From assembly GCA_004321805.1 (NCBI GenBank), contig SGZV01000002.1, positions 25,629-89,628 of the forward strand: a DNA stretch of 64,000 nucleotides, given 5' to 3'. The notes beneath the pieces were generated by a model, which saw only the letters and a list, made by a program, of their open reading frames with translations, made no database searches and was not told the DNA's origin. Positions 12,015 through 15,005 of this stretch are shown here, piece by piece. Positions within the stretch are counted from its first letter, which is position 1. The number at the start of each line of letters is the position of its first letter. The translations under genes were made by a program, and so were the position numbers. The DNA is from an alpha proteobacterium HIMB59 (GTDB taxonomy: Bacteria; Pseudomonadota; Alphaproteobacteria; HIMB59).

Positions 12015-13639
12015 TGAATAATTTTGAACAAGGAATGCAAAGAAATGATGCAAACTTTGTTCCTCTTACGCCTCTGAGTTTCCTCGATAGAATTAAAGAT
12101 GTCTATCCAGACTATGAAGCATTAATTTATCAAGACAGAAAATATACATGGAAACAGGTTTATGATCGTTGTATTCAGTTTGCTAGCGCTCTAAATAAAA
12201 TAGGAATAGCAGAGGGGGATGTAGTTTCCATCATGGCTGCAAATACCCCAGAGCTTTTTGAGGCCCATTACTCTGTTCCCATGACTGGTGGAGTAATTAA
12301 TACTATTAACACTCGTTTGGATGTTCGCACAGTTGCTTACATTCTTGATCATAGTGATTGTAAAGTATTTATTGTAGATCGTCAGTTTCAAAAAGTAGCC
12401 AGTGAAGCTTTAGCTCAAGTTGATCGAGAAATTACAGTTATTGATATTGATGATCAGCATGCAGGTTTAGGTGAAATACCTTCACTTGGTAAACTAGAAT
12501 ATGAAAGTTTTTTATTATCAGGAGATAAAGATTTTGAATGGGTAAGGCCAAAAGATGAATGGCAAGCTATATCACTTAGTTATACTTCTGGAACAACAGG
12601 AAATCCTAAAGGAGTTGTATATCATCATCGTGGCTCTTATCTGATGTCTATGGGTAGTGTGAGTGCCTGGAATATGCCAAACCGCCTTACTTATTTATAT
12701 ACAGTTCCTATGTTTCATTGTAACGGTTGGGGATATCCATGGACACTAGCAATGTTACATGCAAGGGTTGTTTTTGTTAGAAATATTATTGTTAAAGACA
12801 TTTTTGATTTAATTGATAAATATGAAGTCACTCACTTTGGAGGGGCCCCTATAGTATTAAATATAATCGCTAATGCCCCACCAGAAGATCAAAAATTATT
12901 GAAAAATAAGATTTATGTTATGACAGCAGGTGCGCCTCCTCCTTCATCAATTTTACAGAAAATGGAATCATTAGGATTTGAGGTAATGCATGTCTATGGC
13001 TTAACAGAAACATATGGTCATGTTACACATTGCGCTTGGAATGAGGATTGGAATAATCTTTCAGAGGAAGATCGCTTTGAACGAAAATCTTTTCAGGGTG
13101 TAAGGTATCCTCACACTGAAGTTGTCACTGTTTTAAATCCTGATACTTTTGAGCCAGTTCCCTTTGATGGTGAGACTATGGGAGAGATTATGATACGGGG
13201 TAATACAGTGATGAAGGGATACTATAAAAATGAAGAAGCAACAAAACTATCTTTGAAAAATGGATGGTTTCACTCTGGAGATTTAGCTGTCATTCATCCT
13301 AATGGTTATATTCAAGTTAAGGATCGTTCAAAGGATATTATTATTAGTGGTGGTGAAAATATTTCATCAGTTGAAATAGAAAATATTATAATAAAACACC
13401 CTACGGTATCTCTAGCAGCTGTTGTAGCTCGACCAGATGAGAAGTGGGGAGAGACACCATGTGCTTTCATTGAACTAGCAGAAGGTCAAGATGTTACAGA
13501 AGAGGAATTAAAAACTTTTTGTCGTCAACACTTAGCTGGTTTTAAAATGCCAAAAACATTTATATTTCAAACACTACCTAAGACATCTACAGGTAAGATT
13601 CAAAAATTTGAATTACGTAATATCGTAAAAAAACTTTAA
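12014..13639 (+). CDS. Acyl-CoA synthetase (AMP-forming; short/medium-chain, DmdB-like family)
   Basis: LTPLSFL, YTSGTTGNPKG, YGLTE, GWFHSGD, SGGENI, LPKTSTGKIQK. Confidence 0.9.
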   Translation: MNNFEQGMQRNDANFVPLTPLSFLDRIKDVYPDYEALIYQDRKYTWKQVYDRCIQFASALNKIGIAEGDVVSIMAANTPELFEAHYSVPMTGGVINTINTRLDVRTVAYILDHSDCKVFIVDRQFQKVASEALAQVDREITVIDIDDQHAGLGEIPSLGKLEYESFLLSGDKDFEWVRPKDEWQAISLSYTSGTTGNPKGVVYHHRGSYLMSMGSVSAWNMPNRLTYLYTVPMFHCNGWGYPWTLAMLHARVVFVRNIIVKDIFDLIDKYEVTHFGGAPIVLNIIANAPPEDQKLLKNKIYVMTAGAPPPSSILQKMESLGFEVMHVYGLTETYGHVTHCAWNEDWNNLSEEDRFERKSFQGVRYPHTEVVTVLNPDTFEPVPFDGETMGEIMIRGNTVMKGYYKNEEATKLSLKNGWFHSGDLAVIHPNGYIQVKDRSKDIIISGGENISSVEIENIIIKHPTVSLAAVVARPDEKWGETPCAFIELAEGQDVTEEELKTFCRQHLAGFKMPKTFIFQTLPKTSTGKIQKFELRNIVKKL

Positions 13640-13836
13640 TTACTTTTTTCTTTTTGATTAGGTTTAGGAATAATCCTCATATTTTTTAATTTTTTAAAAC
13701 AATTATAACAAACCATATTGTGATAAGATGATATCAAATTTTGTATTTTTTGAGGAGAGCTATGGATCTCAGACTCGATATAAAGAGCATCCATTGTAGA
13801 GAGCTCACTCTCGCAGTATTTACACGACTCGCTCAT
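13636..13836 (-). CDS. Hypothetical 4-Cys microprotein, third gene of the photolyase operon
   Basis: CKYC-x34-CYNC; in frame with the upstream ORF and separated from it by TAA TAG. Confidence 0.6.
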   Translation of the reverse strand: MSESCKYCESELSTMDALYIESEIHSSPQKIQNLISSYHNMVCYNCFKKLKNMRIIPKPNQKEKSN

Positions 13837-13839
13837 CTA

Positions 13840-14235
13840 TTAATATTTTAGAGATTTCTTAATTTTGTTCCAATACTGAAAAAATCTTTTTGCTGGTTGT
13901 AGATATTTATCTGTTGATAAAAAATAGTCGGGTAAAAGGTCTAGAACATATATCTCTTGAATTTGTAGAAATAAATTTTGGTATTCGGGTATAAAGGTTT
14001 TTTTAGAGATTATTGAGGAAATAGGGTTTTTTTGGTTAATTTCATTTATCACTCTTGAGGTATTTCCTTTATAGATAATGGCCCCAGCTTGTTCTGCCAA
14101 AAAATACCTATATTCAACGACTTTATCACTAATTTGATAGTTTTTTTGAAGATCTTGATCAAAAATATAAATGGGCTGCCCTTCAACATTATTTGGAACT
14201 CTCATGAACTCTTCGTATAGATAAATGATTTTCAT
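13840..14235 (-). CDS. Photolyase-associated protein, probable stand-alone antenna/alpha-beta domain
   Basis: ATGA overlap with the FAD-domain gene; IIYLYEE..R, PIYIFD, IS.K...Y, IYKG and RFFQYW resemble photolyase alpha/beta-domain motifs. Confidence 0.6.
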   Translation of the reverse strand: MKIIYLYEEFMRVPNNVEGQPIYIFDQDLQKNYQISDKVVEYRYFLAEQAGAIIYKGNTSRVINEINQKNPISSIISKKTFIPEYQNLFLQIQEIYVLDLLPDYFLSTDKYLQPAKRFFQYWNKIKKSLKY

Positions 14236-14969
14236 AAGTTGGGGAAAAGCCTCTTGCTAATGTCTTCATAACTTCCATCAATTTCTAAATTTTCAGAGGG
14301 GTTGATAGCAATTTTCTTTCCAGAATATTTAATAACATTGTCTAAGTTGAATATATAAGGTTTACCAGCAAAGGTACTTGCTATCCATTGCCAGGAGAAA
14401 TTATTACTAGCTAAGTCACCGTCAAGTAAATGCTCCAAAAAAAACTTCGCACCAGCTTGCCATTTTATTTTTCGGAAATGAACAATATAGGAAGCAAGAT
14501 ACATTCTTGCATGATTATGTATAAATCCTGTTTCGATTAGCTCTCGGATAAAGTGGTTTATAATTGCAGTTGGCGTTTGCCCTGTGAGAATATCATTTGG
14601 TAATTCATCTCTATAATCATGAGATTTAAATCCTGTTTTATATTCTTCGACATCCTTCCAAAGATAATCGGGATTTTGATAAGCATAGCTTCTCCAAAAA
14701 TCTCGCCAAGCTAATTCTTGGATAAACTTTTCACTTTCGATGTAGGAATATTTCTGTTTGTTTAAATTAAAAATCTCTTGGTTTGTAACAATACCATGTT
14801 TAATAGCAATAGATAAACGGGAGATATGACCATCCAAATAGTTTCTAGTTTTAGCATATTTTTCTGGGTTAAAATTTTCAAATAAAGAGAGTATTTCTGA
14901 TTTAACACAAGATGGAAGGTTTTGTTCAGTTGTGTTAGAAATTAAGTCAGTAATTTTTTTAATTTGCAC
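14232..14969 (-). CDS. Short DNA photolyase, FAD-binding catalytic domain only
   Basis: YAKTRN, SRLS..IKHG, FIQELAWRDFW, TGFIHNHARMYLAS, LLDGDLASNNFSWQW; GTG start. Confidence 0.88.
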   Translation of the reverse strand: MQIKKITDLISNTTEQNLPSCVKSEILSLFENFNPEKYAKTRNYLDGHISRLSIAIKHGIVTNQEIFNLNKQKYSYIESEKFIQELAWRDFWRSYAYQNPDYLWKDVEEYKTGFKSHDYRDELPNDILTGQTPTAIINHFIRELIETGFIHNHARMYLASYIVHFRKIKWQAGAKFFLEHLLDGDLASNNFSWQWIASTFAGKPYIFNLDNVIKYSGKKIAINPSENLEIDGSYEDISKRLFPNL

Positions 14970-15005
14970 TTCAATTTATACTAACGCTTAGAAATGTTAG
15001 ATTGA

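Follow-up and report, generated by a model that had tools for sequence, protein, structure and literature searches.

The stretch of DNA analyzed here, referred to as the window, comprises 64,000 nucleotides from the genome of an alpha proteobacterium HIMB59 (NCBI GenBank assembly GCA_004321805.1, contig SGZV01000002.1, positions 25,629 to 89,628 of the forward strand), and this report concerns three short genes lying head to tail on its minus strand. Genes 1 and 2 probably specify a heterodimeric photolyase of reversed domain order within the NewPHL/SPL class, one subunit each, and gene 3 encodes a small protein with four cysteines. A first-pass annotation made from the letters alone had described three minus-strand genes, coupling of the first two through an ATGA overlap, and a CxxC...CxxC pattern in the third, all of which were found again at the coordinates that it had given. 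The assembly of the window genome has a size of 1.07 Mb with a completeness of 80%, the genome being approximately 1.3 Mb. The features of the locus, in coordinates of the window, are as follows:

14232-14969, minus strand: gene 1, predicted flavin adenine dinucleotide (FAD)-binding catalytic helical domain of a NewPHL/SPL-type photolyase; 245 amino acids (aa), GTG start
13840-14235, minus strand: gene 2, predicted stand-alone photolyase alpha/beta (Rossmann-like) domain, putative cap subunit; 131 aa, ATG start
13636-13836, minus strand: gene 3, four-cysteine microprotein with a Lys-rich tail, presumed zinc-binding; 66 aa
14232-14235, minus strand: ATGA overlap of the gene 1 TGA stop and the gene 2 ATG start, read from the sequence
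13834-13842, minus strand: TAA-TAG-ATG junction between gene 2 and gene 3, with a 3-nt spacer, both genes in the same frame
14970-15005, minus strand: 36-nt spacer between a pxpC-like gene (upstream, same strand) and gene 1

All 24 loci of the window's clade (window included; some of these may be one genome counted via two collections) carried this trio in unchanged order and with the 4-nt overlap preserved, at protein identities of approximately 58–75%, an arrangement that is far beyond chance. Each of the three genes is under purifying selection, with a median ratio of nonsynonymous to synonymous substitution rates (dN/dS) of 0.08 for gene 1, 0.14 for gene 2, and 0.115 for gene 3, calculated from pairs with unsaturated dS. 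The spacer between genes 2 and 3 measured 2–3 nt throughout the 24 loci and its sequence was not conserved: relatives carry TCA, CTG, TC, or AG where the window has TAG, and the frame of gene 3 differs in many of them. Given this variation in sequence and frame, the TAG following gene 2 is a mere spacer with no special meaning.

Gene 1 matched the Pfam model PF03441 (FAD_binding_7) with an E-value of 4e-27 and 95.4 bits, the cut-off being 27, and it also matched the C-terminal two thirds of the class I, 8-HDF, and DASH photolyase models. Its chain begins approximately 30 residues ahead of the helical domain and has no N-terminal alpha/beta domain. A total of 46 solved photolyases and cryptochromes matched it at E-values up to 0.001, the closest structure being 1TEZ (E 1e-20), a class I photolyase for cyclobutane pyrimidine dimers (CPDs). 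The alignment to 1TEZ indicated that W88, M156, N189, and W195 are retained; we take W88, M156, and W195 to be lesion-pocket residues of class I enzymes, and N189 to be the Asn located beside flavin N5 in those enzymes. The protein has a single cysteine, at position 21, and none at the iron–sulfur (Fe-S) sites. Two of its motifs depart from those of its relatives, namely RMY, which is RMW in fused and in the Phr4-like forms described below, and GAKFF, which is GAKWF in most split relatives; we are not aware that either of them plays a part in the electron-transfer chain. In the same alignment, E85 and N152 corresponded to E274 and N341 of EcCPDI, the Glu and Asn named as essential for repair (PMC7736829). 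Regarding the electron-transfer triad, W193 occupies the proximal and W170 the medial Trp position, and the distal position aligned to H117, while NewPHLs likewise keep the proximal and medial Trp only, the distal one being missing (PMC7736829). Of the earlier suggestion of an altered photoreduction chain, the departures at RMY and GAKFF hold, but W193 and W170 are kept and the distal loss is a known trait of the class. Taken together, these alignments show gene 1 to be a predicted FAD/catalytic helical domain with intact CPD-repair residues. Its relatives amounted to 5410 proteins of 134–429 aa, of which the best 120 were nearly all of 226–289 aa and carried PF03441 only. Gene 1 of the window's clade is shorter by approximately 18 N-terminal residues than relatives of about 263 aa, and its gene 2 falls short of most others by about 12, which is in keeping with genome streamlining.

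The identity of gene 2 was assigned through its family and its predicted structure. Among 61 gene 2 homologs taken from the loci, 28 matched PF00875 at E-values up to 1 (best E 2.4e-7), and on the corresponding part of a fused relative (L092, described below) the same model scored 21.1 bits against a cut-off of 26.6. When gene 2 alone was searched with phmmer against 1.8 billion representatives, 22 proteins were retrieved, none of them fused, and the family profile reached further. An AlphaFold2 model built from the family alignment (pLDDT 87.9) presented a beta-alpha-beta fold, for which the Foldseek list consisted mostly of photolyases and cryptochromes with weak E-values. In VIA-align, residues 1-131 of the model aligned with residues ~2-165 of photolyases and cryptochromes with Z values of 8–10.2 over 102–131 residues, and 46 of the top 50 entries belonged to these proteins; the predicted five-stranded parallel alpha/beta fold superposes on photolyase N-terminal domains. 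The predicted model, together with the family matches to PF00875, shows gene 2 to be the photolyase alpha/beta domain that is N-terminal in canonical enzymes, so that the proposal of a split photolyase with inverted domains was borne out. The label 'antenna' given to this domain is doubtful, as characterized NewPHLs are without an antenna cofactor (PMC7736829, PMC8476157). The C-terminal end of gene 2 contains the conserved motif KRFFxYWNKxKK, which recalls the Trp and GFF motif of the NewPHL Z-domain (PMC7736829), a resemblance only; a comparison of gene 2 with the Z-domain of sister-family fused NewPHLs by hidden Markov model (HMM) or hhalign gave no match, the profile being very shallow and compositionally biased and this negative therefore of little weight in either direction.

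The organization of the two genes was compared over 92 loci, comprising the window's own, 11 from same-genus genomes, and 80 from a collection of species-representative genomes. In 90 of these loci the gene 1 homolog had a gene 2 homolog immediately downstream, the two exceptions being L092 (Anaerolineae), in which the two parts are fused, and L029, in which only a degraded match was found. Hosts of the split pair included Alpha- and Gammaproteobacteria, Acidobacteriota, Cyanobacteriota, Melainabacteria, Chlamydiota, and Chloroflexota, among others. The junctions were mostly 4-nt overlaps, accompanied by overlaps of 1 and 8 nt and gaps of 3, 12, and 60 nt, and the frame of gene 2 relative to gene 1 was offset by 2 in 66 loci, by 1 in 21, and by 0 with an intervening stop in 3. 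Gene 2 always possessed its own start codon where the alpha/beta domain begins. Since the pair is conserved across phyla and in independent assemblies, the frameshift error at 14232-14235 that the first-pass annotation had singled out for checking is excluded, and the variety of junctions and frame offsets makes a single programmed frameshift unlikely as a general mechanism; it is simpler to assume two chains made by coupled translation. Single-chain versions, which the first-pass annotation had proposed to look for, were also found in a minority of the relatives, with the same order of the two parts. The L092 protein has 456 aa, with PF03441 followed by PF00875, and the gene 2 profile retrieved 59 single-chain clusters of 331–692 aa (most of 412–510), all with the FAD domain first and with linkers of a few to approximately 80 residues, mostly 25–40. 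Fusions of this kind argue well for the two products working as a single enzyme, with the parts in gene order. In a quick maximum-likelihood tree (SH-aLRT support, no bootstrap), L092 nested among split forms and hence looks like a secondary fusion.

The first-pass annotation had not recognized a three-part form as described; the FAD-first split into two genes is already known as the two-gene form of NewPHL/SPL photolyases, namely the homologous Phr4/Phr5 of marine Synechococcus (PMC9426592, PMC3441193), and NewPHL/SPL itself is a class of single-chain enzymes. The genes phr4 (FAD domain, four Fe-S cysteines) and phr5 (photolyase domain) are adjacent in all marine Synechococcus (PMC9426592; first noted by Mella-Flores et al. 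2012, PMC3441193), phr6 of Cyanobium is a fused, single-gene form (Haney et al. 2022, PMC9426592), and phr4/phr5 contribute to the survival of Synechococcus under ultraviolet (UV) light and raise the survival of E. coli without phr (PMC9426592). NewPHLs carry FAD only and repair CPDs in single-stranded DNA (Emmerich et al. 2020, PMC7736829); they have no antenna cofactor, and closing off the FAD site is the role proposed for their second domain (PMC7736829, PMC8476157). SPL is the same class as NewPHL, with approximately 250–400 residues; four Fe-S cysteines occur in some of its subgroups, whereas subgroup A lacks them (Xu et al. 2021, PMC8476157). In our tree, the split family and the sister-family fused NewPHLs formed one clade against canonical photolyases (SH-aLRT 95), within which the sister-family fused NewPHLs constituted a separate clade (support 99) with approximately 33–39% identity. 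The cyanobacterial loci with four cysteines at Phr4-like spacing (155/240/243/250), each followed downstream by a gene 2 homolog, formed a clade with support 100 inside the split family, and the window's clade (support 99) nested in a large, mainly proteobacterial branch without these cysteines. No cysteine is invariant in the family alignment and the four Fe-S cysteines are absent from gene 1, so that, by sequence, the window pair is placed as a Cys-less relative of Phr4/Phr5.

The pair thus shares with Phr4/Phr5 two adjacent homologous genes of the same clade, with the FAD domain first and the alpha/beta domain second, and the existence of fused relatives. It differs in that Phr4 has four Fe-S cysteines and is a predicted (6-4) photolyase, while the single cysteine of gene 1 lies elsewhere, in that Synechococcus has a fixed 7-bp G-C spacer in place of the ATGA overlap, and in that no third small gene has been reported in Synechococcus. 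With NewPHL/SPL enzymes it has in common the absence of an N-terminal alpha/beta domain, the conserved CPD-repair residues, and the proximal and medial Trp only, as well as the lack of Fe-S cysteines seen in SPL subgroup A; in contrast, characterized members are single chains of approximately 400 aa with a C-terminal Z-domain, whereas the second domain in the window is a separate gene. Canonical class I CPD photolyases (1TEZ, 1DNP) share both domains and the active-site residues with the pair but form one chain of approximately 470 aa with the alpha/beta domain first, a full Trp triad, and usually an antenna chromophore. Three further genes of the family were identified in the window genome (G000:C2:17860-19038, G000:C28:38725-40158, and G000:C3:5016-6503), two with PF00875 and PF03441 and one with PF04244 and PF03441 (bacterial (6-4)/PhrB type), and none of the three reached the cut-off of the DASH model. 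NewPHLs are found in company with class I and (6-4) photolyases but seldom together with DASH proteins (PMC7736829); the photolyase set of the window genome, with class I-like and bacterial (6-4) types present and the DASH cut-off not reached, fits this published co-occurrence.

Considering these results, genes 1 and 2 are likely each to supply one subunit of a heterodimeric, reversed-order photolyase belonging to the NewPHL/SPL class. ATGA-coupled translation would yield both chains, with gene 3 translated right after gene 2, and the two chains would come together with the alpha/beta domain lying over the open flavin edge, the place taken by the second domain of single-chain photolyases. FADH-, generated by photoreduction via W193 and W170, would then donate an electron to a cyclobutane pyrimidine dimer and thereby split it, the substrate probably being single-stranded or unwound DNA, as for characterized NewPHLs. 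Several points weigh against this interpretation. Heterodimer formation, flavin, substrate, and zinc are all features that we infer; gene 2 alone had no significant match in Pfam, NCBIfam, or PDB sequences, and consequently its assignment depends on its family and predicted structure; and in E. coli with phr4/phr5, survival after UV-C showed no difference between light and dark (PMC9426592), which leaves the closest studied system not biochemically settled.

Three other explanations of the pair were weighed. If genes 1 and 2 were truly one gene, interrupted by a sequencing or assembly frameshift or read through by programmed ribosomal frameshifting, the product would be a NewPHL-like chain such as those of the single-chain relatives; for Synechococcus phr4/phr5, with its fixed 7-bp G-C spacer, Haney et al. 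considered such a frameshift and left the choice between one and two polypeptides undecided (PMC9426592). The break recurring in 90 of the 92 loci with an individual start codon for gene 2, and offsets and junctions to which no single slippery site or shift direction can be fitted, make this barely credible, and no canonical X-XXY-YYZ heptamer was seen by eye before the TGA in the window. It is also very unlikely that gene 1 is a self-sufficient minimal photolyase and that gene 2, whatever its ancestry, does something separate. Prochlorococcus has been reported to possess a FAD-domain-only gene with the other half absent (PMC3441193), and in one cyanobacterial genome (L110, G436:C43) the two genes are 1.4 kb apart, but the adjacency of the pair, usually with overlapping stop and start, and its fusion in 59 protein clusters speak for a joint function, as does the covariation analysis in NewPHLs, according to which the second domain sits at the rim close to the flavin (PMC7736829). 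Finally, the pair could be a light sensor, that is, a cryptochrome-like signaling protein with no part in DNA repair. A cryptochrome role has been raised for SPLs with C-terminal extensions (Xu et al., PMC8476157), and the phr4/phr5 rescue of E. coli after UV-C showed no significant light dependence, as mentioned above; on the other hand, gene 1 retains E85 and N152, the two residues by whose absence the non-repairing NewCRY group is defined, as well as both lesion-binding Trp, the pair has neither an extension nor an output domain, and characterized members of the class repair CPDs (PMC7736829, PMC8476157), so we hold a sensor to be very unlikely.

Gene 3 carries its cysteines at positions 5, 8, 43, and 46 in the pattern C-x2-C-x34-C-x2-C, and the four cysteines plus 24 other positions were invariant among 13 distinct orthologs. 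The gene was present in 52 of 70 genomes of the genus, with one copy each, and no credible match was obtained in 116 sister-family genomes. Among 5.8 billion proteins, only 73 clusters were retrieved, all at least 57% identical and all unnamed; a protein atlas returned unnamed small-protein clusters only, and a member-by-member search of Pfam gave scattered sub-threshold zinc-finger matches with no consistent family. The predicted model, of moderate confidence (pLDDT 73.6), consists of two Cys knuckles, three helices, and a disordered Lys-rich tail. In a set of 24 same-genus genomes searched with gene 1 as the query, gene 3 was found in 15 of the 16 genomes bearing gene 1, in the remaining one of which gene 1 lies 414 nt from a contig end, and it was absent from all eight genomes without gene 1, which answers in the affirmative the question of co-occurrence raised by the first-pass annotation. 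In the comparison of genomes lacking the trio, intended to reveal loss of the cassette, the flanking gene of G010 hits a contig end, and G015 is rearranged with pxpC missing too. From sequence conservation, gene 3 is a real, genus-restricted Cys4 microprotein, presumably zinc-binding, and being confined to one genus, it cannot be a general part of the enzyme. The metal site in trans that the first-pass annotation had suggested for it found no support here.

Whether gene 3 serves the photolyase is a more balanced question, in which we lean slightly towards a joint function, for example DNA contact through the basic tail or assembly of the enzyme. Its start lies within 2–3 nt of the gene 2 stop at every locus, it is under purifying selection as strong as that on gene 2, it was never found in a genome lacking the pair, and another small Cys4 protein, described below, has been independently recruited beside the same photolyase family elsewhere. 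That gene 3 is unrelated to the photolyase, being a lineage-specific orphan or a small regulator that ends the transcription unit, is nevertheless quite possible, at somewhat short of an even prospect. Thousands of split photolyases do without it, it is restricted to a single genus and is not homologous to the Cys4 protein found elsewhere, and the whole region, with the pxpC-like gene upstream and an acyl-CoA synthetase gene downstream, is syntenic across that genus, so that the linkage may be just historical. To the detriment of a joint function, this synteny means that the adjacency represents one inherited event, i.e., co-inheritance in place of independent association; moreover, the gene 3 model had no structural match in the PDB (best E 2.7), a diverged form of DUF2256 (the Cys4 family in question) was tried as its identity and rejected (hhalign probability 0.65%, no Pfam match), and the DUF2256 gene of the window genome itself (G000:C8:13722-13820, L112:1501-1599) lies beside no photolyase. 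The latter lies between a phosphoribosyltransferase-like gene on one side and, on the other, a 159-aa open reading frame (ORF) for which Pfam gave no match; beyond this ORF, farther upstream, comes an Alph_Pro_TM gene.

Outside the window's clade, a gene of the DUF2256 family (PF10013) adjoined the split pair within 3 kb in 20 of 68 loci (29%), belonging to several phyla. In 11 loci it overlapped the end of gene 2 (L026, L027, L035, L038, L041, L044, L050, L052, L056, L066, and L074), in six it overlapped the start of gene 1 (L042, L087, L088, L090, L091, and L092), and in three it was convergent and about 1 kb off (L057, L081, and L089). For a gene occurring approximately once per genome, such a frequency (29% of the loci) and three separate layouts suggest a functional link, and a literature search for a connection between DUF2256 and photolyases found none. 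Like gene 3, DUF2256 proteins are small (approximately 47 aa) and basic, have four cysteines, and occupy the same position beside the pair; they differ in the spacing of the cysteines, which is C-x2-C-x22-C-x3-C (with a YCS-x2-C signature) as opposed to C-x2-C-x34-C-x2-C. By analogy of position and chemistry only, gene 3 may play a DUF2256-like part. A wider generalization, that reversed-order photolyases commonly have a third part in the form of a small zinc protein with four cysteines, with DUF2256 in many lineages and gene 3 here recruited independently, is offered tentatively, and we consider it doubtful. If it were true, the Cys4 protein would help to find, hold, or open damaged DNA, or to assemble the two halves, and the functional unit at this locus would be an undescribed three-protein photolyase. 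A weak DUF2256-like match was also observed beside a sister-family fused NewPHL (L093).

The split reversed-order photolyase is thus real and common, including in abundant, genome-streamlined bacteria of the surface ocean. What is new here is modest, namely that the two-gene form prevails in the family across many phyla in the collections searched and that the pair is inherited together with a Cys4 microprotein confined to one genus, to which DUF2256 forms a parallel elsewhere; the variety of junctions and frames, also new, bears on the one-chain-or-two question of the Synechococcus Phr4/Phr5 and favors two polypeptides. Retention of the pair beside three other photolyase-family genes in a genome of approximately 1.3 Mb represents a heavy investment in photorepair, presumably useful under UV, and the recurrent small Cys4 neighbor (gene 3 or DUF2256) provides a lead to a possible helper of light-driven DNA repair. 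Otherwise, the findings are an orderly extension of known biology.

Regarding the surroundings of the trio in the window, a consensus scan of the 36-nt spacer found no promoter-like site between the pxpC-like gene and gene 1, and downstream of gene 3 the acyl-CoA synthetase gene is convergent, the two stop codons overlapping in the TTAA at 13636-13639. Some loci showed particular features of the photolyase genes themselves. In a cyanobacterial locus (L111, G420:C1:2564500-2568400), the Phr4-like gene is broken into pieces of 189 aa and 139 aa with the gene 2 homolog intact, and a sister-family fused NewPHL (L098:1411-2634) bears a run of approximately 20 Asn inserted in its N-terminal region. 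A full-length canonical-type photolyase gene was situated just upstream of the split pair in three loci (L036:828-2408, L044:985-2505, and L066:3-1187), which thus hold clusters of photolyases. In many Caulobacterales and other Alphaproteobacteria, an ORF of approximately 320–345 aa follows a few bases after gene 2 (L031, L039, L040, L043, L057, L068, L071, L073, L076, L079, L081, and L089), which in L040 encodes a flavin amine-oxidase-like protein (PF01593, PF13450), while in the Anaerolineae loci L088, L090, and L092 a gene encoding an Mrp/NBP35-type Fe-S carrier ATPase follows instead.

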